Counted from the stretch's first letter, positions 4,118 to 17,648 are shown. The stretch is 64,000 nt of DNA from Acidobacteriota bacterium (GCA_019347945.1 JAHWKK010000003.1:31059-95058); one strand, 5' to 3'. The notes: generated from the letters alone by a model not told the origin. Program-made: numbers and translations.

Positions 4118-5674
4118 TCACTCGAGCTCAGCGGTCTTTCCGGTCATCGCCCGTCCCGCCGCACGCAGTTCGCGGACGACGAGCGGGACCGTTGCGAACG
4201 TCGCACCCGCCGCAAGGAGGCACCAGAAGCAGAAGGCTTTGTGTTTGGTCCACTGATCGAGCGTGAGTTTCCCCGCATTGGCGGCATCGAAGGCGACCTT
4301 CGCACCGAGCGCGAGCGGAACCCACGGCATCGTCCGGTACCGATCGGGACCACCCATGGCGGCAAGCGACATCGTCGCTGCGTAGCTGCCGAGGCCGAGA
4401 ACCGCATCGGGCATCGAGAATCTCTCGTACGCTTCCGCCGACGCATCGACCTTGTCTGCATCCATCATCGGAAGCGGCGGCTCGGGCAGATGCCGGATGA
4501 TCCCCATCTGATAGAGCGCGATGAACCCCATCGAGGCGGAAGCGAGAGCTGACAGCCCCACGATGCCGCGCCTGTCCTTCAGATACTTCGACTCTCCCCT
4601 GCGGAGGTCGCGGCTCAGCCTGGACGCCTTCTTCTTCGCCCGCTTCTTCTCTTTCCGCTGCTGACCATTCCCTGCAGCCTTCAGACTCACGGCCACGGCG
4701 CCTAACGCGATCGCAGCAGCACGACTCAGCCAACCGCGGTGCAGATTGGCCTTCGTATACCAGTCGTGTTTCTGCGCTCTGTCGTCGAACCGGCCATGAG
4801 CTCCATGATCACCGGGGACTGGTGCCCACAGATTGTGCGGACGGTCCGGATCTTCCGGCTCGTCGGTCATCTGATCGTAGCCGTTGTCGGCGAGATAGGT
4901 GTCTCCGTAGCCGGGAAAGAATGCGTTTCCGACGATCGCCTTCGTGGTATTCCACGCGACGTTCACTTCCCTGCGATCGTTGTCTACGGCCCACATCACC
5001 GCGCGGGCGGCGATCTCGGGCTGGTAAATCTCCCCCACCGGCGCAGCCCGGCGCGGCAGCTTGCTTTTCACCCAGTCGAACTGCGGAGTATTGACTGCGG
5101 GAAGGTTCACCATCGTCAGACGCACAGCGCTCCTGTCGTGGATGAGCTCCGCGTACAACGAATCGTTGAAGCCCTGGATCGCGTGTTTGGCTCCGCAATA
5201 AGCCGCCTGCAACGGAATGCCCCGGTAAGCCAGAGCAGAGCCGATCTGGACGATCACGCCGTGATCGCGCGGAAGCATCCGACTGAGGGCGGCCATCGTT
5301 CCATGAACGACACCGAGGTAGGTCACCTCCGTGACCCGTTTGACTTCGTCAGGCCGCAGTTCTTTAACCGGCGAGAAGACAGAGACCATCGCGTTGTTGA
5401 CCCAGACGTCGATTGGACCGAAGGTCTCTTCGACCGTTTTCGCTGCGGCCTCGACCGCATCAGCATCCGCGACGTCCAGAGGGAGAATGATCGCCTCCCC
5501 GCCGAGCTCTTCGACATCGCGCTTCGCGCCTTCGAGGCCATCCCCTCCGCGCGCGATCAATCCGATCCGAGCACCACGGACTGCGAGCTCCCGCACGATC
5601 GCGCGACCCACACCCGCCGACGCACCGGTGACGACGACCACCTCGCGTTTCTCATCCTGCGCACGCTTCTTCAT
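4118..5674 (-). CDS. SDR family oxidoreductase fused to a C-terminal membrane domain with a CxxC motif (VKOR/DUF4126-like)
   Basis: Rossmann motif VVVTGASAGVGRAI and catalytic YCGAKHA in the N-terminal half. A Lys-rich linker follows, then ~200 aa of hydrophobic helices containing CFWC. Probable true start is the ATG at 5674 (MKKRAQDEK), which has a GGGAGAAAGGA RBS. The track start at 5809 is probably too long. Confidence 0.7.
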   Translation of the reverse strand: MKKRAQDEKREVVVVTGASAGVGRAIVRELAVRGARIGLIARGGDGLEGAKRDVEELGGEAIILPLDVADADAVEAAAKTVEETFGPIDVWVNNAMVSVFSPVKELRPDEVKRVTEVTYLGVVHGTMAALSRMLPRDHGVIVQIGSALAYRGIPLQAAYCGAKHAIQGFNDSLYAELIHDRSAVRLTMVNLPAVNTPQFDWVKSKLPRRAAPVGEIYQPEIAARAVMWAVDNDRREVNVAWNTTKAIVGNAFFPGYGDTYLADNGYDQMTDEPEDPDRPHNLWAPVPGDHGAHGRFDDRAQKHDWYTKANLHRGWLSRAAAIALGAVAVSLKAAGNGQQRKEKKRAKKKASRLSRDLRRGESKYLKDRRGIVGLSALASASMGFIALYQMGIIRHLPEPPLPMMDADKVDASAEAYERFSMPDAVLGLGSYAATMSLAAMGGPDRYRTMPWVPLALGAKVAFDAANAGKLTLDQWTKHKAFCFWCLLAAGATFATVPLVVRELRAAGRAMTGKTAELE

Positions 5675-5830
5675 CTCTGAATGTCCTTTCTCCCGTTCAG
5701 CCGCAGCAAGAAAAACTCCAGCCGGCGATTCGCTCGCTGAACTGAGATTGTCGAAATTGACGTTCACCAGGGCTCGATGTGTGGCGGCCAGTTTCGAGGC
5801 AGCAGCCATCGAATGACCAGAAGCTCTCAG

Positions 5831-7031: not shown

Positions 7032-7149
7032 GGCCTGTTCTTACCGAATGCCCAGCGCACTGTCCAGTGGTTGATGGAAATCAGTGCAATCAAATCCGCA
7101 CCCGGATCGTAACGCGGCTGAGGCACGTAGCCGTGCCCAGGAGGAAGGA

Positions 7150-7878
7150 ATGACCGAACCGACGTATGTGAGGCAGACGAAAATCAACTGGAGCTCGGCA
7201 CTGATCGCCGGATTGATCGCTACTGTCGTGATCACGATTACGATGGCGATCTTCGGGCAGAACATCATGAAGATGCTCGGCTCGACGATGCTCGGCGAGG
7301 ACGCGAGCGTGGGCGCACAGTATCTCGTCGGAGGAATGTTCCATCTGATGGTCGGCCTCATCTGGGGCGTGCTCTACGCGTGGCTGTTCGGTCCCGTGCG
7401 CGTGTGGAATCCGCTCCTGAAGGGAATCGTGTACGGTCTGGCCATCACCGCCATCGCCCTCGCGACCATGCCGATCATGATGGCAATGATGGGCGGAGGG
7501 GGAGCCGGAAACCCATGCGCCGCCAACCCGTGCGCCGCCGGAAACCCGTGCGCCGCCGCCAATCCGTGCGCTGAAGCGCCCGGCAATCCCTGCCAGCCTT
7601 CGGATGTCGCGGGGAACCCGTGCAATCCATGCGCTGCCAATGCGAGCTCTTCGCCCGACCACGCCGGCAATCCGTGCAACCCCTGCGCGGCGAAGGCCGC
7701 ATCCAATCCATGCGCGGCGAAGGCCGGGTCCAATCCCTGTTCTGCGTCAGCCGGAAATCCGTGCAATCCATGCGGCGGATCCGGAGGAGACACCTATTCG
7801 GCGATGATCAGCCTGATCAATCATCTCGTCTTTGCCCTGGCGCTGGCGTTCATCTACAGGCCGCGGGTGGCAGAATGA
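7150..7878 (+). CDS. DUF1440-like polytopic membrane protein with an inserted Cys-rich NPC tandem-repeat loop
   Basis: ATG at 7150 sits directly after an AGGAGGAAGGA RBS; the track start at 7084 is probably too early. Three N-terminal TM helices and one C-terminal helix (INHLVFALALAFIY), homologous in outline to the paralog at 12948..13481. Between them is a ~100 aa loop of repeats: GNPCAANPCAAGNPCAAANPCAEAPGNPCQPSDVAGNPCNPCAANASSSPDHAGNPCNPCAAKAASNPCAAKAGSNPCSASAGNPCNPCGG. The stop TGA overlaps the ATG of the next gene (ATGA). Confidence 0.6.
   Translation: MTEPTYVRQTKINWSSALIAGLIATVVITITMAIFGQNIMKMLGSTMLGEDASVGAQYLVGGMFHLMVGLIWGVLYAWLFGPVRVWNPLLKGIVYGLAITAIALATMPIMMAMMGGGGAGNPCAANPCAAGNPCAAANPCAEAPGNPCQPSDVAGNPCNPCAANASSSPDHAGNPCNPCAAKAASNPCAAKAGSNPCSASAGNPCNPCGGSGGDTYSAMISLINHLVFALALAFIYRPRVAE
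7501..7790 (+). repeat. In-frame 15-18 bp nucleotide tandem repeat encoding the NPC/Cys loop
   Basis: Repeated units aa(c/t)cc(a/g)tgcgc(c/g)gcc occur at least 12 times. Unit length is a multiple of 3. The reverse strand yields the mirror HGLHGFPA repeats seen in spurious ORF 7374..7793. Confidence 0.6.
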
Positions 7879-8810
7879 CATTCCCTCCCCCAATTCGTCT
7901 CGCGGGAGTATTCGCCGGCGCAGTCCTTCTCCTGGGAGGTACCGGCTACTGGCTGGAGCGGAGCTCCGCATCGCTGGATGCCGAAGGGCTGGCGTGGGGA
8001 AGCGGGACGGACCTGACGCGTCCCGCGAGCTCCGGTGAGATGGTGATGATTCCTGGCGGCACGTACCGGATCGGGGACGACTCCGACCATGCGGCTGCGG
8101 ATGCGCCATTGCGCGAGGTCGCCATTCAACCCTTCTATATCGACACGCACGAGGTCACCAACCGCCAGTTTCGCGAGTTCGTCGAGGCGACCGGCTACCG
8201 AACGACCGCGGAACGTCAGGGGGGAGGTTGGGGCTACCGATCGGGAGCATCGGACTGGGAGTATCTCCGCGGTGCCAGCTGGCTTGAGCCGCTCGGTCCT
8301 GGAAGCTCGATCGACGGCGCACTCGATCATCCCGTCGTTCTCGTTTCATGGGAAGACGCACGCGCGTATTCCGCGTGGGCCGGCAAGCGGCTTCCGACCG
8401 AAGCGGAGTGGGAGGTCGCCGCCCGCGCCGGTGTATCGGCAGGCAACACCACTTCCCGTCATCGCGACCCCTCGAAGGATGGATCTGCGAATGTCTGGCA
8501 GGGAACCTGGCCGCGCAGGAACGAGCTGGTGGACGGATTTTTCTACACTGCACCCGCCGGTACGTTCGAGCCGAACGACCTCGGCCTTTACGACATGATC
8601 GGGAACGTCTGGGAGTGGACCGAAGATCCGTACGATCGGGTCAACGCGCCGGAGATGCGTGTCGCCCGCGGTGCCTCGTGGTTCTGCTCGGCAAGCTACT
8701 GCGGTGCCTATCGTCCCGGGTTTCGCGGCAAGAGTCCGATCTCGCGCGGGTTCAACAATGTCGGGTTCCGCTGCGTGAAAGATGCGGTGTCACTGAGCAA
8801 TGAGAGTTGA
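7875..8810 (+). CDS. Formylglycine-generating enzyme family protein (SUMF1/EgtB/PvdO family), secreted or periplasmic
   Basis: ATG at 7875 overlaps the upstream stop. N-terminal signal anchor AGVFAGAVLLLGG. FGE-sulfatase domain hallmarks: RGASWLEP...HPVVLVSWEDARAYSAWAGKRLPTEAEWE...GNVWEWTED...RGASWFCSASYCGAYRPGFRGK. It lacks the DinB-type N-terminal domain found in EgtB. Confidence 0.85.
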   Translation: MTFPPPIRLAGVFAGAVLLLGGTGYWLERSSASLDAEGLAWGSGTDLTRPASSGEMVMIPGGTYRIGDDSDHAAADAPLREVAIQPFYIDTHEVTNRQFREFVEATGYRTTAERQGGGWGYRSGASDWEYLRGASWLEPLGPGSSIDGALDHPVVLVSWEDARAYSAWAGKRLPTEAEWEVAARAGVSAGNTTSRHRDPSKDGSANVWQGTWPRRNELVDGFFYTAPAGTFEPNDLGLYDMIGNVWEWTEDPYDRVNAPEMRVARGASWFCSASYCGAYRPGFRGKSPISRGFNNVGFRCVKDAVSLSNES

Positions 8811-9876
8811 TTTCAGTCCTATGCGAGATTTGATGCGTCTCCGCGTGATTGCTCCGCTCGTTCTGACACTTACGGTTTCTGCCTGTGCAGCGCCAAACGT
8901 CGACGATCCGAGGAGGGAGCCGAAAACGAGGGACGGATTGCCGCACATCACCGAGGTTGAAAACGATCCCGTTCACACGCTGCTCGCTCCCGACGCGATC
9001 CCCGCCATCGACGAGCCGGAGTTCGTTCGGGCGGCCGATGCGACGTTCATGGATGACGACGAGCCGGTCATCGGTGTCGTCTTGGACGGGGTGGCGAGGG
9101 CGTACTCCACATGGCACCTCGACCGCCACGAGATCGTCAACGATACGATCGCCTCGAAGCCGCTCGCGGTCACCTGGTGACCGCTCGCGCATACGGGCGT
9201 CGTGTACGCCCGACCGGAAGTCGACGACGGTCCGACCACCCTGGGCGTGTCGGGGATGCTGTGGCGTGATTCTCTCGTGATGTACGATCGTGCGACGCGC
9301 TCGCTCTGGAGCCAGGTCAATGGCCGGGCTGTCGCCGGGCCGATGAAAGGACGGCGGCTCGAAGAGTTTCCGTCCGAGCAGATGACGTGGGCCGAGTGGA
9401 AGCGCCGCCATCCGGACACACTGGTCCTCGTCAAGCCCCGCCTTCGCGGTTCGACGTACGATCGATACTTCGATGATCCCCGCATGATCGGGGTCCGCGG
9501 GTCGCGGAACCCCGATCCTCGCCTGCCGGGAAAGGAGCTCGTTCTCGGCCTCGAGCACGATGGCCGCTTCGCCGCCGTGCCGATCTCTGCGCTCCGACAG
9601 CGTCCGATCCTTCTGACCACAGCGCTCGACCGTCCAATCGTCGTCACCCGCACCGCCGCCTTCGACCGGCGTCATGGCGATCGCTCGCTCACATTCGAGC
9701 CTTTTGACGGAGCGCGGATGCGCGATCGGGAAACCGGTTCGATCTGGTCACTGGACAGCGGAGAAGCGATCGACGGACCGCTCCAGGGGCAGCACCTCGC
9801 GCGCATCTCGGCGAAGACTGTCTACTGGGCGATCTGGGCGAAATTTCATCCCGAGACCGCGGTGATCGAACCATGA
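8800..9876 (+). pseudogene. DUF3179-like lipoprotein reading frame interrupted by a single in-frame TGA (9178..9180): either a nonsense pseudogene or a selenocysteine/readthrough site
   Basis: ORFs 8800..9180 and 9202..9876 are in the same frame and together form one ~350 aa secreted protein. Lipobox LTLTVSAC near the N-terminus; candidate starts at 8800, 8821 and 8833. The sequence reads ...KPLAVTW-TGA-PLAHTGVVYARPE... with no frameshift. Start overlaps the FGE gene stop (8808..8810). Confidence 0.5.
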
Positions 9877-9936: not shown

Positions 9937-10521
9937 TCACGCAGTCCTGGCGAGCGCCATGACGAGCCCCTTCTCTTTCCAGACATCGATTCGAAGTCCA
10001 TCGATGACGAACTGCTGCGAGGAGCCGATTCTCGCAAGTCGCTCGTCGGCCCGCACCTGAATCAGAGTGCAGATCCCTCCGGACGGCTCGACGAGCTTGA
10101 TTTCTATCGCAGACAACCCGCCGACCGACGAGTATCGCGCGCCGACTACGCGCAGCGACATCTCTGCGGCGCGCTGAGGCATTACCGGATTGAAGTCGAG
10201 ACGCGCCATCTTTGCGCGCAGCTCGTCGTAATCAGAAGCTCGTACTTCGACAGCGAGACGGCGGTTGTGATCCCGGGCCGCGATCATCGCAATCTCCTCC
10301 GCCGCCCCGTGATCGCGAGGGACCAGCAGAAGTGCGGTGGCCGCGATCAGGATTGCAATGACCGCAGCGATCGAAAGCCAGCGAACCGAAAACCGGCTGG
10401 ACCTCCGCTCGCGCTCGCTCCCCTTTCGGAGAATGCGGATCTCGTCGATCATGGACGAGGAGAGACGCTTCGATTCGTAGTGAGTGCGAATCTGCTGTTC
10501 CAGGTTCTTTTCCGGTTTCAT
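9937..10521 (-). CDS. Anti-sigma factor, single-pass membrane protein
   Basis: ATG at 10521 (MKPEKNLEQQ...) overlaps the ECF sigma stop as ATGA. Cytoplasmic N-terminus, TM helix WLSIAAVIAILIAATALLLV, periplasmic C-terminal domain. Partner of the upstream ECF sigma. Confidence 0.5.
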   Translation of the reverse strand: MKPEKNLEQQIRTHYESKRLSSSMIDEIRILRKGSERERRSSRFSVRWLSIAAVIAILIAATALLLVPRDHGAAEEIAMIAARDHNRRLAVEVRASDYDELRAKMARLDFNPVMPQRAAEMSLRVVGARYSSVGGLSAIEIKLVEPSGGICTLIQVRADERLARIGSSQQFVIDGLRIDVWKEKGLVMALARTA

Positions 10522-11037
10522 ATGCTTCCCTCTGCGCCGGTCCGGCAATTCAGAAGGGTCCTCAGTTTCGATTTTGTTCGATGCAGCAGACTCAGCACCG
10601 TCCCCCGCGGCCGGCGCGTCAGATCGGCGATCTCCTGCGCGGTATAGCCCTCGACCACGGCCAGAAAAAGCGTCTCCCGCTCCTCCGCCCTGAGCTCGCC
10701 GAGCGCCTGATCGAGTGCGCCGGAAAGGAGATAGTCCTGCTCCTTCAGCGAGACAGCCGGCAGATCGGCGTCTTCTTCGATTGGAACGAAAAGAATGCGC
10801 CGATTGCGCCGGTACCTGTCGATGAACCGGTTCCGGATCGTCGTCAGGAGATACGCCTTATCCCAGGAGCCGCCCGAGCGGACGACAGCCACGCAGGCAT
10901 CATGGACCAGATCTTCCGCCTCTTCCACCGCGTGGGTGAGCGCCATTGCATAGCGGAATGCAGCGTGCAGCAGATCTTCGAAATCTGCGTCGTCAGACCA
11001 CTCCGCCGAGACATCTGTCGGCACGGTTTCATTCACC
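10518..11037 (-). CDS. RNA polymerase sigma-70 factor, ECF subfamily
   Basis: Sigma-70 region 2 (DLVHDACVAVVRSGGSWDKAYLLTTIRNRFIDRYRR) and region 4 (LFLAVVEGYTAQEIADLTRRPRGTVLSLLHRTKSKLR). The track ORF (to 11222) extends into GC-rich nonsense. Most plausible start is the GTG at ~11037 (VNETVPTDVS); exact start is uncertain. Confidence 0.7.
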
Positions 11038-11288
11038 GGTTCTTGCTCTGCATCGGAAACGCCCGGCCGCGAGCTTTGATTGCAGCGGAAGAGCCCCGCG
11101 CATCGACCCCTCGCCCCGCTCGCGGGTAGAGGGGCCGTACAACTCCGATGCGGGCTACCACACGCAGAGGCTGCAAGCCCCCCGACTCCGTCTCCCGGCG
11201 CGCGTTGATCGCGCAAGCTCATCCGCGAATGCCGCGCGCCACTTCTTGTCTCGCCGACTTCGCGGGGAGAGGGGAGCGGCGGTGGTGC

Positions 11289-12314
11289 TCATCTTCGAAC
11301 CGGACGTCTTCGCGCGGGCGCGTCGTTCCGAAACCAGCCCCGTGCCGTCGGCTCTGACTTCAGGAACCTCAGAAGCAGCGCTCCCACTTTCTGTTCGCCC
11401 GATTGCGCGGGATGCGTTCCGTCGCTCTGAAAATCGCCGGGCTCCCATACCAGCCCGTCGCTGCGCGGGTTCTGGCCGTCTGCCCAGAGATACGGCCCCC
11501 ACGCCATCCATGGAGCGGCCGTGGCCCAGGACAGATCGCCCGCGCGGGGATTCGTCACCTCTCCGTTGCGCATTTGTTCGATCTGCGCTTCGACCGCCCA
11601 CTTGACTGCAAACGCAGACTCGTAGGCGTAGGGTTCCGGATTCAACATCGTCGTTGCATAGCCGGCGTAGATCCGGCTCGACAGATAGATGATCTTCAGG
11701 TTCGGATAGCGGAGGCGAAGCGCGCGTGCGATGTCGCCGATCTGGGTCACGAGCCGGTATGCGTCGGCCTGGCCATCGGGAAGCGATCGCGTCGGACGCG
11801 GGTTGGCCACCTTCACCCACGCCACCTGAACCTGCGCTTCCGAGAGTCCACGCGGCGCCAGCACCGTGTCTCGTATGCGGTCGTAGTTCCTGTCGCCCGC
11901 CGAGTCCCACGTCTCCGCGGCCTGCCCGCCCTTCGCACCATTTGCGAAGACCAGAGAGGTCCGATTCACCTCCGGGTCGGCGAGCGCCTGGCCTACGAAC
12001 GACCACACCTCGCAGCGGGTTGGATTTCCCTGGGAACAGAACTCCTGAGTCGTATTCGACATCCCGACCGATAGAAGAACGATCTTCCCTGATGATGATG
12101 GAACGCCGACAGTATCCCGCGGCACGATCTCCCGCGCGAACGACATGCCGGCCGCCGCGTGATCGAGTGGCATCTCGTTCCGGCCACCGGGATACAGACC
12201 ACCGGGAAATCCGAGATAGTTCTGCGATCCCATGTCGGTGAGGGGCGTCAGAGCCGATGCGACTGTGGCGAATCCCGCGAACATCAGAGTGACGCGTGTC
12301 AGCTTCATGCTCAT
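11289..12314 (-). CDS. Secreted hypothetical protein, possible SGNH/GDSL-like hydrolase
   Basis: Signal peptide MKLTRVTLMFAGFATVASALTP. A GKIVLLSVGMSNTTQ block resembles SGNH block I. The larger overlapping ORF 11155..12510 in another frame is rejected. Confidence 0.5.
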   Translation of the reverse strand: MSMKLTRVTLMFAGFATVASALTPLTDMGSQNYLGFPGGLYPGGRNEMPLDHAAAGMSFAREIVPRDTVGVPSSSGKIVLLSVGMSNTTQEFCSQGNPTRCEVWSFVGQALADPEVNRTSLVFANGAKGGQAAETWDSAGDRNYDRIRDTVLAPRGLSEAQVQVAWVKVANPRPTRSLPDGQADAYRLVTQIGDIARALRLRYPNLKIIYLSSRIYAGYATTMLNPEPYAYESAFAVKWAVEAQIEQMRNGEVTNPRAGDLSWATAAPWMAWGPYLWADGQNPRSDGLVWEPGDFQSDGTHPAQSGEQKVGALLLRFLKSEPTARGWFRNDAPARRRPVRR

Positions 12315-12560
12315 TGGACGGATTGAGGGGCCGTTCGTTTACTCGTACTGGCTGCAAATATTGTCCAGCTGTAGACTTGAATCCTTCGGAAGATTTTTTT
12401 CTCCGGGCCTGACGTACGTCGTGCAACTCTCCGCGACAAAGAGGTTTAAAAAAGCAGGACGGGCTTTCGTGCAGTAAGAGTAGGGGCCTGATGGGAAGTG
12501 GCGCAATCACTCCTGTGACTTACTCGTCTCTCTACCGAGATTAATAGTAGGGGCCAGGTC

Positions 12561-12830
12561 TTTTGGGGGTTGTTGCTCAAACCCGGGATAGAGACGATGG
12601 CGGGGAAAAGTCCGCCCCTTGTCATCCTGAGCCGCCGAAGGACGGCGAAGGATCTGGGGGTGGCTCGCGAATCATCGTCATGGCGGGCTGGAGGATCATT
12701 CATGAGCCCCCGCCCAGATCCTTCGCCGTCCTTCGGCGGCTCAGGATGACGAGTTGTGAACGCGTCGAACCTGGGGTAAATCTGGACGGGTGATCCTCTC
12801 GGCTTGTCGGTTTGAGCAACAACCCGTTTT
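12561..12830. repeat. Nested-palindromic MITE-like repeat element (~270 bp) in a divergent intergenic region
   Basis: Terminal inverted repeats GGGTTGTTGCTCAAACC at 12565..12583 and 12810..12826. Inner perfect 38 bp inverted arms gtcatcctgagccgccgaaggacggcgaaggatctggg at 12621..12658 and 12713..12750, separated by a 54 bp spacer. Member of the widespread GTCATCCTGAGC...GAAGGATC repeat class. A partial second copy lies at 63685..63776. Confidence 0.7.
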
Positions 12831-12947: not shown

Positions 12948-13481
12948 ATGAGAACCCGATCACGACGCATCCGTGAGCGCAGCCTGGCCACCGACCTGCT
13001 GGTCGGTACGGCTGCAGGAGTGGCCGCTACATGGGTGATGGACTGGGTAACGACCATCATGTACGAGCGGGAGCCGCAGCAGGCAAAGGATCGCGAGAAC
13101 GCAGCCCGCGGCGACCAGATGGCGTACGAGACAGCGGCCGAGAAAGCCGCTGAGCTGCTCGGTCACGAGCTCTCCGAGGAGCAACGAAAGACGCTCGGCG
13201 CCGGCATCCACTGGACGCTCGGCGTTTCTGCCGGTACGGTTTACGGCCTCGCTCGGAACCAGGTTCCTGCCGCCGGGCTCGGATCAGGTCTCGCCTACGG
13301 TGCGCTCTTCTGGCTGGCGATGGATGAGGCGGCGCTCACCCTTCTCGGCCTCACTCCGCCGCCGCCCGAGTTTCCATGGCAGACGCACATGCGCGGACTC
13401 GTTGGCCATCTCGTCTTCGGCGTGGTCGTCGAGGCGGCGTTCGCCATCGCGGACACCGCGCAGGACCGGCTCTCCGACTGA
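12948..13481 (+). CDS. DUF1440 family membrane protein
   Basis: ATG at 12948 (MRTRSRRIRE) downstream of GGAAGGAG; the track gives a TTG start at 12894. Four predicted TM helices. YGALFWLAMDE and HLVFGVVVEAAF blocks parallel the NPC-repeat protein at 7150 but without its Cys loop. Confidence 0.6.
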   Translation: MRTRSRRIRERSLATDLLVGTAAGVAATWVMDWVTTIMYEREPQQAKDRENAARGDQMAYETAAEKAAELLGHELSEEQRKTLGAGIHWTLGVSAGTVYGLARNQVPAAGLGSGLAYGALFWLAMDEAALTLLGLTPPPPEFPWQTHMRGLVGHLVFGVVVEAAFAIADTAQDRLSD

Positions 13482-13590: not shown

Positions 13591-13889
13591 GGCACAACTT
13601 CCGCACGATCCGGAGAGATGGGCGAGTTCGGAAAAGTTCTTCTGCTCGCGCTGATTCCAGCTGCCGGAGTGATCGGCGGGGGGCTCGTCGGGGAACTGAT
13701 GGCGATCAGCCGCAAGGCGAGAAGCATGGCGCTTCATGCCGCGGCCGGTATCGTCCTTTCAGTAGTTGCGGTGGAACTGTTGCCGGAGGCCATCACGGTC
13801 GATCCGCCCTGGGCGGCAATCGTTGCGTTCGCGTGCGGCGGGCTCTTCTTCGTCGGCATCGATCGCGCGGTCGATCTCATCGCAAGTCG
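13591..13889 (+). repeat. Truncated duplicate of the 5' end of the ZIP transporter gene (direct repeat copy A; gene fragment)
   Basis: 13625..13889 matches 16930..17194 with 1 mismatch in ~265 bp (first ~95 codons of the ZIP gene, MGEFGKVLLLALIPAAG...). Similarity decays upstream. Copy A keeps an ATG and reads into unrelated sequence (ORF 13618..13962). Confidence 0.8.
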
Positions 13890-14023
13890 GGATGGGGAAA
13901 GTTGGGGTCAGAGCCAGAAACGCAACTTAACGAGGTGGCGAGTGAAAAGTCCGCCGAGGTAAAATCCCTCTGCGGCCTGCCACCGGTCAGTCGCCGGCAC
14001 AGCTCCGGGGTGCTTCCGGACGA

Positions 14024-16627
<2,604 letters not shown>

Positions 16628-16922
16628 GCGTAGGAGACAAGCTTACCCCGGATCATCTCGGTCGGTGGAGTCCGGAGCCGGCGCGGCACCCCGACATCCG
16701 GTCCGGAGGCCCTACCCTCACCTGCGGTCCGAAGGAAAAGGAGGAAAAGTGGAGCCAACTCCAAGACCTTACCGCAAGTGCCTGCGTCGCCGAGCTCGTC
16801 GCGCGCCTCGTATCCACACCACTTTCCACCTCCTCGCGACACATCTCATGAATCATCCTGGCTGAGCTTCCATGCTCTGGGTCCTGGCGGTCGCGAGGCA
16901 CAATTCCCGCACGATCCGGGCC

Positions 16923-17648
16923 ATGGGGGAGTTCGGAAAAGTTCTTCTGCTCGCGCTGATTCCAGCTGCCGGAGTGATCGGCGGGGGGCTCGTCGGGGAA
17001 CTGATGGCGATCAGCCGCAAGGCGAGAAGCATGGCGCTTCATGCCGCGGCCGGTATCGTCCTTTCAGTAGTTGCGGTGGAACTGTTGCCGGAGGCAATCA
17101 CGGTCGATCCGCCCTGGGCGGCAATCGTTGCGTTCGCGTGCGGCGGGCTCTTCTTCGTCGGCATCGATCGCGCGGTCGATCTCATCGCAAGTCGCGAGGA
17201 GAATGGCGGGCGCGGGCCGTGGATGATCTACGTGGCGGTCGCCATGGATCTTTTCACCGACGGCATCATGGTGGGGTCCGGCAGCACCGTTCGCTTCAGT
17301 CTTGCTCTGATGCTGGCGACCGCGCAGATTCCGGGTAACCTTCCCGAAGGTTTTGCGACCGCCGCAACGATGAAGCGTTCCGGAGTCGCCCGGAAGTCTC
17401 GTCTTGCAGCGCTGCTCGCTCTGACGCTCGTTGCAGTCGCAGGAGCCTGCAGCGGCTACTTTCTCCTGAGGGACCAGCCACTGGTCTGGCGAATGGCCAC
17501 GCTGGCCTTTACAGCAGGAATCCTGACGACTGCAGTCGTCGAAGAGATCATTCCCGAATCCCATGAGAAAGGCGAGGCGCGCGCTGCAGTGCTCTTTTTC
17601 ATCGGAGGCTTCGTTCTCTTCATGGCCATCGCGTCCTACGTCGGGTGA
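16923..17648 (+). CDS. ZIP family metal transporter (ZupT-like)
   Basis: Eight predicted TM helices. ZIP signature region with His/Glu pairs (HNFTDGIMVG-like MDLFTDGIMVG; EEIIPESHEKGE). N-terminus MGEFGKVLLLALIPAAGV. Alternative upstream ATG at 16872. Confidence 0.8.
   Translation: MGEFGKVLLLALIPAAGVIGGGLVGELMAISRKARSMALHAAAGIVLSVVAVELLPEAITVDPPWAAIVAFACGGLFFVGIDRAVDLIASREENGGRGPWMIYVAVAMDLFTDGIMVGSGSTVRFSLALMLATAQIPGNLPEGFATAATMKRSGVARKSRLAALLALTLVAVAGACSGYFLLRDQPLVWRMATLAFTAGILTTAVVEEIIPESHEKGEARAAVLFFIGGFVLFMAIASYVG

Follow-up and report, generated by a model that had tools for sequence, protein, structure and literature searches.

Asn-Pro-Cys repeat proteins paired with a distinct clade of formylglycine-generating-type enzymes, and a predicted DUF3179 selenoprotein, in an Acidobacteriota locus

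This study concerns three adjacent genes in a 64-kb stretch of DNA (64,000 nucleotides, hereafter the window) from an Acidobacteriota bacterium (GCA_019347945.1, JAHWKK010000003.1:31059-95058). The three open reading frames (ORFs), g1, g2 and g3, lie on one strand and span positions 7150-9876. The first, g1 (7150-7878, +), encodes a 242-aa DUF6789-type membrane protein with four transmembrane (TM) helices and an array of Asn-Pro-Cys (NPC) repeats in the loop between TM3 and TM4. The second, g2 (7875-8810, +), encodes a 311-aa enzyme of the formylglycine-generating enzyme (FGE) family with an N-terminal membrane anchor. The third, g3 (8800-9876, +, with an alternative start at 8833), encodes a DUF3179 protein that is probably a lipoprotein and is predicted to contain selenocysteine (Sec) and to adopt a Rieske-like fold. 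An earlier note on this DNA had described the three as a coupled operon. The same-strand gene set is real, and so is the overlap between the first two genes: the g1 stop codon (TGA, 7876-7878) and the g2 start codon (ATG, 7875-7877) share an ATGA, through which g2 is translationally coupled to g1. The proposed coupling of g3 to g2 (8800/8808) stands only in part. An in-frame ATG at 8800 would give an 11-nt overlap with g2, whose stop codon is at 8808-8810; however, the gene call of an independent assembly starts g3 at 8833, and approximately 326 nt separate g2 from g3 in a close relative (L007), so this coupling is not conserved. A Logan assembly (L001) holds the same 7.2-kb stretch, the in-frame TGA of g3 included.

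The loop of g1 (residues about 120-208) carries 13 NPC motifs (7507-7773, +) and is predicted to be disordered and periplasmic. In the AlphaFold2 model, TM helices at residues 14-34, 54-80, 88-114 and 215-235 have a predicted local distance difference test (pLDDT) score >90, while residues 118-211 form a disordered loop with pLDDT <50. The charge pattern predicts an N-in protein by the positive-inside rule, which would place the loop between TM3 and TM4 in the periplasm. All 13 Cys residues fall within residues 123-208, and the TM helices have none; the repeat insertion described in the earlier note is real, but its count of about 18 cysteines was too high. Two His residues, H65 in TM2 and H225 in TM4, are invariant in the g1 family and lie at a similar depth. 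Imperfect 18- and 27-nt periodicities are present in the repeat DNA. A fold search with g1 found no match in the PDB.

The family assignment of g1 also required revision. The four TM helices are supported by the AlphaFold2 model, but the Pfam scan gave no match to DUF1440, the family previously named, and instead a sub-threshold match to DUF6789 (16.9 bits versus a cut-off of 27.1). A search with g1 returned 575 homologues; among the 120 listed, PF20587 was precomputed in roughly a quarter, and all 120 share the same architecture and the Cys-rich loop. The loop is thus family-wide and not a lineage-specific insert, as had been thought. Its units read NPCNPC, NPCAAK or NPCHPK, many loops contain MNPCHPKE, and most finish in a near-invariant GNPCNPCGGGG. 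The NPC count ranges from 4 to 22 across homologues while the motif itself is constant, which argues for a conserved repeat rather than slippage junk. A DUF1440 membrane protein is encoded elsewhere in the window (12948-13481, +; PF07274, E = 9e-13) and had been called a paralogue of g1 with the same fold. Profile comparison of the g1 family with this protein (hhalign) gave a probability of only 3%, and the argument from a paralogue was abandoned. A loop-less protein of 151 aa from KSB1 (L112) matches DUF6789 and, weakly, DUF1440, and aligns to TM1-3 of g1 homologues with E-values down to 5e-8. This suggests that DUF6789 and DUF1440 may be distantly related.

The product of g2 matches the FGE-sulfatase profile PF03781 over its full length (Pfam, E = 9e-70) and, like all members of its clade, has a hydrophobic N-terminal anchor, in agreement with the exported FGE-family protein proposed earlier. 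FGEs in the PDB match g2 at E = 1e-53 to 1e-75, the latter value with the family profile. True FGEs (T. curvata, human, S. coelicolor) are the best matches of g2 and 15 orthologues; the inactive paralogue SUMF2, EgtB, PvdO and PorK match the g2 family more poorly. In the FGE of T. curvata (tcFGE), C269 and C274 bind Cu(I) and Trp228 and Ser266 form the O2 pocket (PMC6676471). The residues of g2 that align with the Cu(I) ligands, Cys271 and Cys276 (codons in 8685-8702, +), are invariant in 16 orthologues. Ser268 (S266 of tcFGE) and Trp246 (W228) are likewise invariant in the clade, and Tyr275 (Y273) is nearly so. The substrate groove is remodelled. Trp84 and Ser290 of tcFGE hold the substrate Arg(+4), and Arg276 hydrogen-bonds the substrate thiolate (PMC6676471); in the clade of g2, Ala takes the place of Arg276 and Gly that of both Trp84 and Ser290, and the groove loop 91-108 is deleted. 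As judged from these alignments, the enzymes lack the residues that read the sulfatase motif CxPxR, with the Cu-binding pair and the O2-pocket Trp and Ser kept. No sulfatase was found in the scanned parts of the window or in the annotated loci.

In other genomes, this enzyme travels with NPC repeats. An FGE 50-87% identical to g2 lies immediately downstream of a g1 homologue in 18 of 19 loci outside the window, with the FGE start -4 to +24 nt from the g1 stop in 18 loci, and the same arrangement is seen in L027-L030. Hosts of the g1-FGE loci belong to Thermoanaerobaculia, Pyrinomonadaceae, Acidobacteria gp7, Fimbriimonadales and Opitutia, and the gene neighbourhood is therefore kept across several phyla. 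The NPC-linked FGEs (23 sequences) were compared with tcFGE and 79 generic FGEs as controls. The control set came from a metagenome scan with an FGE alignment, for which 80 loci were listed, mostly generic FGEs of 36-45% identity. A neighbour-joining tree grouped all 23 NPC-linked FGEs into a single clade, with the 79 controls and tcFGE outside it. Exactly one ORF with at least three NPC motifs is present in each of the 23 loci of this clade, compared with none of the 79 control loci. The clade carries the signature GSWFCSxxYC[GSA][AS][YF]; C-x-R-[YF] is kept in 72 of 78 control FGEs. Only one of the 80 loci in the scan (L031, itself among the 23) has an NPC-repeat neighbour, and it is also the sole locus with the clade signature, as C-G-A-Y.

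In L031, the gene upstream of the FGE encodes a secreted protein that has a YceI domain and, at either end, NPC repeats. Hosts of this second NPC family include Zixibacteria, KSB1, GN15 and Acidobacteria. At least three NPC motifs were found in 102 of 120 YceI homologues, and the repeat carriers have signal peptides. In all five loci examined, the YceI-NPC gene shares an operon with an FGE of the g2 clade and a small 2-TM protein, so co-occurrence of NPC proteins with FGE-like genes, which the earlier note had proposed to check, holds for g1 and YceI loci alike. The pairing follows the repeat and not the scaffold. Since it persists on the YceI scaffold, it is the repeat that partners the enzyme, most likely as its substrate. 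Based on sequence predictions, the NPC arrays would be displayed outside the cytoplasm in both cases, on the DUF6789 TM3-TM4 loop in the window and on the tails of secreted YceI domains elsewhere. The KSB1 locus L112 encodes the loop-less DUF6789 protein, YceI-NPC and the FGE in one operon, and the occurrence of the first two as separate proteins makes g1 of the window look like a fusion of two components. The 2-TM protein (111-136 aa; L031 4038-4385, L111 8027-8374, L112 8024-8359, L113 2828-3187, L114 5537-5947) belongs to no family and has no counterpart in the window. Thiol-redox genes are frequent neighbours of the paired genes (VKOR, DsbH, AhpC/Redoxin, DoxX, DsbD_N).

The sequence context of the cysteines differs from that of the sulfatase motif. 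Among 1,980 Cys residues in the two NPC families, N-P precedes 93-96%, Pro stands at +2 of 41-44%, and a single Cys has the CxPxR context. We therefore rejected, as a general rule, the idea that Pro(+2) recognition is kept and Arg(+4) lost. A profile search of 1.84 billion representatives returned 580 proteins at E ≤ 0.001, some of which match only in the repeat region. NPC tails were also seen on SoxA/TsdA-type cytochrome c, cytochrome P460, YHS and LysM proteins (P0415, P0425, P0434, P0467, P0469, P0481, P0492, P0499), which makes the repeat a portable module carried by redox and metal proteins of the periplasm. At 4148-7281 of L011, a gammaproteobacterial g1 homologue with 14 NPC motifs follows genes for an ECF (extracytoplasmic function) sigma factor, an anti-sigma-like protein and a DUF3106 protein. 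We found no prior description in the literature of NPC repeats, DUF6789, an FGE associated with YceI or non-sulfatase FGE substrates. Taken together, the central idea of the earlier note, a thiol-modifying FGE-family enzyme with a Cys-repeat partner, survives on the three points that could have overturned it: the neighbourhood is conserved, the copper-binding Cys pair is present and the repeat is maintained in relatives.

The third gene differs from the other two in that it is a variable accessory of the g1-FGE loci. DUF3179 genes were found near g1 and its FGE at 6 of about 20 g1 loci, in varying order and orientation, and the view of DUF3179 as a fixed third member was dropped. At other sites, DUF3179 comes after an SDR-VKOR fusion or is part of DUF547-VTT-DUF3179-MerA-like-MerT-HMA-CopZ-CsoR clusters. 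In the window, g3 has no promoter motif of its own and is therefore probably co-transcribed with g1 and g2. The earlier note had read g3 as a DUF3179-like lipoprotein gene interrupted by a TGA. The family and the probable lipoprotein nature stand, but the TGA (9178-9180, +; motif W-U-P-L-A-H-T-G) would be the selenocysteine codon of an already known selenoprotein family. PF11376 was detected in both halves of g3 by Pfam, the N-terminal part running to profile position 64 and the C-terminal part from 66, with the TGA at 65. The TGA and its motif are kept, with the frame intact, in L007, L009, L010 and L018 (54-84% identity). A Pyrinomonadaceae homologue (L008) has TGC in its place and reads F-C-P-L-C, and full-length Cys forms of the family read WCPLC or WCPLA. 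The motif is missing from 51 of the 120 top g3 matches, most of which are C-terminal fragments (about 50 clusters) that start just past the TGA; these are Sec forms split by gene callers. DUF3179 has been listed as a selenoprotein family with the motif UxxC/T (PMC9312934, PMC13188914), and one g3 homologue is named "(seleno)protein" by NCBI.

A candidate bacterial selenocysteine insertion sequence (SECIS) hairpin, CGGGCGU-CGUGU-ACGCCCG, lies at 9194-9212 (+), 16-34 nt after the UGA. In the consensus fold of five orthologues, its 7-bp GC stem and 5-nt GU-containing loop (CGUGU) are nearly invariant. Of the 12 amino-acid-invariant codons among the 13 that follow Sec, 9 are the same at the nucleotide level in all five sequences, versus 22 of 99 elsewhere. 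The hairpin is no more stable than shuffled sequences (z-score about 0) and shows no covariation in the five orthologues. Rfam gave no SECIS or other RNA family, either in a scan around the TGA or, at the gathering threshold, in the whole window. With stability, covariation and Rfam silent, the case rests on conservation and position. We also considered that the TGA is a true stop and g3 a pseudogene or two separate genes. The behaviour of the hairpin and of Rfam would fit this, as would the splitting of the ORF by gene callers, the absence of any tRNA, and hence of tRNA-Sec, from the 64-kb window and the absence of sel genes from the ORFs scanned. However, alignment of the TGA with a conserved Cys in an open frame in four orthologues, the synonymous constraint just downstream, the many C-terminal fragments that begin directly past the TGA and the published status of the family make a true stop extremely improbable. 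An Rfam miRNA match near the TGA was discarded as spurious, since it reflects a local palindrome. This palindrome is a perfect 8-bp stem, GCGGTCAC/GTGACCGC, at 9167-9185 of the window with the UGA within its 3' arm. The stem is conserved in L010 and L018, and may merely follow the V-T-W-U-P codons or may slow UGA decoding.

An ECF-type promoter motif, GCAATCA-N14-TCGT, is located at 7086-7110 (+) and ends 39 nt 5' of the g1 start codon. Downstream of g3 on the opposite strand are genes for a single-TM anti-sigma factor (9937-10548, -; weak NCBIfam anti-sigma match) and an ECF sigma factor (10518-11036, -; GTG start at 11036; Sigma70_r2 and r4_2 domains; 172 aa in the gene call). By direct reading, a promoter-like motif with one mismatch in the -10 element (GCAATCA-N14-GCGT; 11059-11083, -) lies 5' of the sigma gene, and the exact motif is found 5' of orthologous sigma genes in L002, L009, L012, L014, L015, L017 and L029. 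The exact form, GCAATCA-N13-16-TCGT, occurs twice in the window compared with 0.2 copies expected by chance. In 16 of 20 distinct g1-type (type-A) loci it precedes g1 by 19-125 nt, and related loci carry two to four copies each, versus none among the 80 loci that the generic-pattern FGE scan listed. In at least seven loci a sigma orthologue (48-61% identity) stands beside g1-FGE, and anti-sigma orthologues (38-43% identity) adjoin the sigma gene in L002, L009, L012, L014, L015 and L017. We infer that the linked sigma factor recognises the GCAATCA-TCGT motif.

The same motif was found directly upstream of DUF3179 (L009, L018, L021, L022), MerA (L021), MerT (L023), a radical SAM (rSAM)-ArsM-like fusion (L021, L027) and DUF547-VTT operons. 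The L021 reductase is a true MerA (505 bits versus a cut-off of 454), and the methyltransferase half of the fusion scores 241 bits to the arsenite methyltransferase ArsM. In L027, a MerC-HMA-MerT-CopZ-CsoR cluster is divergent from g1, and the same families were found in L018. By tblastn, mer/ars-type and other neighbour families recur around g1 and its FGE and are absent from controls. In the window itself, tblastn and scans found neither mer nor ars genes; mer genes are present in the sister loci L018, L021, L023 and L027. The shared promoter points to a thiol/soft-metal envelope-stress regulon. The rSAM/SPASM and ArsM-like fusion (about 825 aa) stands beside a PHO4-family transporter (L027 9599-13140; L029 4349-6832, 8562-9668; L021 586-4145); it is the commonest neighbour of g1 and its FGE in Thermoanaerobaculia loci and is absent from the window. 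An FMN_red neighbour was tried as ArsH and set aside, as it gave no NCBIfam match.

The gene set of the window is a reduced one, consisting of an SDR-VKOR fusion, g1-g2-g3, the anti-sigma and sigma genes and DUF1440. The fusion (4118-5809, -; adh_short and VKOR) is a recurrent neighbour of the g1-g2-g3 set. It lies directly 5' of the Sec-DUF3179 gene in L021 and was detected by tblastn in L021 and L022 and near g1-FGE in L002, L009, L016 and L017, which suggests a redox partnership with DUF3179. The second exact copy of the promoter motif (12503-12527, +) is 420 nt upstream of the DUF1440 gene with a palindromic insert between them, and this gene is a possible member of the same regulon. The insert, at 12618-12753, is an inverted repeat of 46 nt with 93% complementarity and a spacer of 44 nt, and it resembles a miniature inverted-repeat transposable element (MITE) or repetitive extragenic palindrome (REP). 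A gene at 11289-12314 (-), on the strand of the sigma gene and immediately upstream of it, encodes a secreted protein of 341 aa that matched nothing in Pfam or NCBIfam, and a 61%-identical copy is found near g1 in L017. A ZIP-family zinc transporter sequence lies at 16872-17648 (+), split from a short membrane ORF (13618-13962, +) by a convergent Ser/Thr kinase gene (14024-16627). The NrtS-like gene noted earlier upstream of g1 is a weak call (E = 0.002; 17.9 bits versus a cut-off of 25) and is kept only in close relatives. Scanned parts of the window contain no nitrite-reductase genes, and the proposed nitrite link through NirV and NrtS was rejected on both counts.

How might these components work together? 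We consider it an even call that the window holds the fused version of a widespread, undescribed envelope system in which an FGE of the g2 clade oxidises the NPC cysteines of its partner as part of an ECF-controlled defence. In the periplasm, the enzyme would use Cu(I) and O2 to oxidise these cysteines. By analogy with FGE, the product would be formylglycine, with H2S released and a thioaldehyde as intermediate. The modified or thiol-rich array could then act in a defence against thiophilic metal(loid)s or oxidants under control of the ECF sigma factor, and the DUF3179 selenoprotein may serve as an accessory redox or metal site. Oxidation of NPC cysteines is the most economical reading because the catalytic core is intact, the groove is remodelled and the only constant of the partner is N-P-C. 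A bolder version is more doubtful, and we offer it tentatively. Here the g2 clade would provide the first case of a formylglycine-generating-type enzyme whose client is not a sulfatase. As a periplasmic Cu/O2 enzyme, it would convert whole NPC arrays to formylglycine or thioaldehyde-derived groups, and the scaffold that bears the array would be exchangeable: the DUF6789 loop, a YceI tail and possibly a cytochrome c, P460 or YHS protein. The modified arrays would then bind soft metals as chelators or form cross-links between proteins of the envelope, in an ECF-controlled defence that evolved in parallel to the bufferins discussed below.

Several observations weigh against oxidation of the array by the enzyme. 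We know of no use for a change from Cys to formylglycine in a disordered repeat. The Pro(+2) that FGE reads is present at fewer than half of the NPC cysteines (the 41-44% given above) and Arg(+4) at none, so recognition by the g2 clade would have to be new. The Arg276 that makes the hydrogen bond to the thiolate in tcFGE is missing, and the enzyme could be impaired or repurposed. Translational coupling fits a stoichiometric complex as well as an enzyme-substrate pair. FGE needs O2, yet several host lineages live in low-oxygen settings. L011 and other proteobacterial g1 homologues have no adjacent FGE; in the L011 lineage the FGE may be encoded elsewhere, or the array may be used differently. 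NPC tails are also seen on cytochromes c, P460, YHS and LysM proteins. Finally, the mer and ars genes sit in sister genomes and not in the window.

Three other explanations can be set against the same evidence. The NPC array could be a supply of cofactor or electrons, its thiols capturing Cu(I), acting as reductant, or both, to metallate and recycle the exported enzyme, while the enzyme would really act on a different protein or on a small thiol. FGE does need Cu(I) bound by two Cys residues (PMC5324649, PMC6676471), and the many MNPCHPKE loops offer the classic Cu(I) ligands Met, Cys and His. Translational coupling suggestive of a 1:1 complex, the two invariant TM histidines of DUF6789 and the frequent thiol-redox neighbours also fit such a role. 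However, no alternative substrate is visible, sulfatases being absent from the scanned parts of the window and the annotated loci, and the residues for CxPxR recognition are lost. The strict N-P before each Cys resembles an enzyme recognition motif more than a metal-binding tail, and to our knowledge cytoplasmic FGEs need no such partner. On balance, we regard a supply role as unlikely. We think it similarly improbable that the pair is non-catalytic and that the array and the bis-Cys site of the enzyme act as a sponge or relay for soft metals, binding Hg(II), Cu(I), As(III) or Cd(II) in the periplasm and sequestering them or passing them to the membrane domain for uptake and MerA/ArsM-type detoxification, with the selenocysteine form of DUF3179 as a high-affinity, MerP-like periplasmic ligand. 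The promoter shared by g1, DUF3179, MerA, MerT and ArsM-like genes in sister genomes would be explained by this, as would the MerC-HMA-MerT-CopZ-CsoR families of L027 and L018 and the true MerA of L021. In addition, the Cys pair of FGE accepts Ag(I) and Cd(II) besides Cu(I) (PMC6676471), the discovery list that includes DUF3179 has several metal binders among its selenoproteins (PMC9312934), and bufferin domains are likewise fused to MerC (PMC12452194). Against a relay, the invariant O2-pocket Trp and Ser argue for retained catalysis, the TM helices of g1 have no Cys for Hg transfer, the window is devoid of mer and ars genes, and the YceI (type-B) loci show thiol-redox neighbours instead of metal genes.

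The remaining alternative is ordinary sulfatase maturation, in which g2 would serve, as a standard FGE, sulfatases encoded at other sites, and its location beside g1 would be meaningless. The true FGEs among its best matches and the retained catalytic Cys pair are consistent with this. Nevertheless, the NPC pairing in 23 of 23 loci versus 0 of 79 controls, the separate clade signature with its lost Arg(+4) contacts, the persistence of the coupling when the repeat moves to a different scaffold and the lack of a nearby sulfatase in the scanned parts of the window leave this explanation with hardly any credence.

FGE is known from one job, the maturation of sulfatases at CxPxR, and is widely used as an "aldehyde tag" tool. 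A clade of natural FGEs whose target motif is different and repeated would widen the chemistry of the copper-thiolate oxygenases and would provide a new tag/enzyme pair for protein engineering. It would also bring to light a stress system of the envelope that is common among little-studied phyla (Acidobacteriota, Armatimonadota, Verrucomicrobiota, Zixibacteria, KSB1). Through the shared ECF promoter, the NPC protein and its FGE are tied to mercury and arsenic genes and to the selenoprotein DUF3179, which gives a testable physiological context for DUF3179, DUF6789 and the SDR-VKOR fusion.

Comparison with known systems begins with the aerobic FGEs (SUMF1; T. curvata, S. coelicolor and human), which share with the g2 clade the PF03781 domain, the two Cys ligands of Cu(I), the Trp and Ser of the O2 pocket and the Tyr corresponding to Tyr273. 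Human FGE also acts outside the cytoplasm, in the lumen of the endoplasmic reticulum. The g2 clade differs in being separate and membrane-anchored, in lacking equivalents of Arg276, Trp84, Ser290 and loop 91-108, and in being encoded with an NPC-repeat protein and not with sulfatases. Its presumed target is N-P-C in a repeated, disordered array, in contrast to a single CxPxR. In the case of g3, the precedent is the DUF3179 selenoproteins (Zhang and Gladyshev 2007, as tabulated in PMC9312934 and PMC13188914), with which it shares PF11376, a predicted Sec at the conserved Cys of C-P-L-C and, at the distance expected, a candidate SECIS-like hairpin. The motif in the literature is UxxC/T, whereas the window and four orthologues read U-P-L-A; Cys forms with C-P-L-A exist. 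What would be new for DUF3179 is its place in an ECF regulon beside the NPC/FGE pair, the SDR-VKOR fusion and mer genes, together with the predicted Rieske-like fold.

The mer components MerP, MerT and MerC resemble the present system in that exported or membrane proteins present paired thiols to soft metals, and they are linked to g1-type genes in sister genomes by adjacency and a common promoter motif. They differ in having no sequence relationship to g1, which has no TM cysteines, and mer genes are missing from the window. With DsbB/VKOR-type oxidoreductases, g1 has in common four TM helices and a periplasmic CxxC (C-N-P-C) just before the last helix. Unlike them, g1 has its Cys residues in a long disordered repeat, and neither homology nor a PDB fold match to them was detectable. 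As a guess, the two invariant TM histidines might form a quinone or haem site.

The bufferins are Cys-containing metallophores of the RiPP class (peptides made by ribosomes and modified after translation) that are exported by the Sec pathway, modified by MNIO (DUF692) enzymes and controlled by SigF/NrsF (PMC11626156, PMC12452194). Here the enzyme is an extracytoplasmic FGE, while bufferins use MNIO and DUF2063, and both DUF692 and DUF2063 are absent from all the annotated neighbourhoods. The partner is also different, being a low-complexity repeat array on large scaffolds and not a small folded peptide. The two systems are alike in placing a periplasmic, Cys-bearing polypeptide beside an O2-dependent metalloenzyme, with Cys oxidation demonstrated for bufferins and presumed here. 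ECF sigma/anti-sigma control, DoxX and MerC in some clusters and a proposed role in metal stress are further common features. Moreover, bufferin Cys domains occur fused to membrane proteins (MerC-Buf1) and even to FGE-sulfatase domains (PMC11626156, PMC12452194). By analogy, the bufferin system would be the nearest conceptual precedent for the pairing of NPC arrays with the FGE clade described here.

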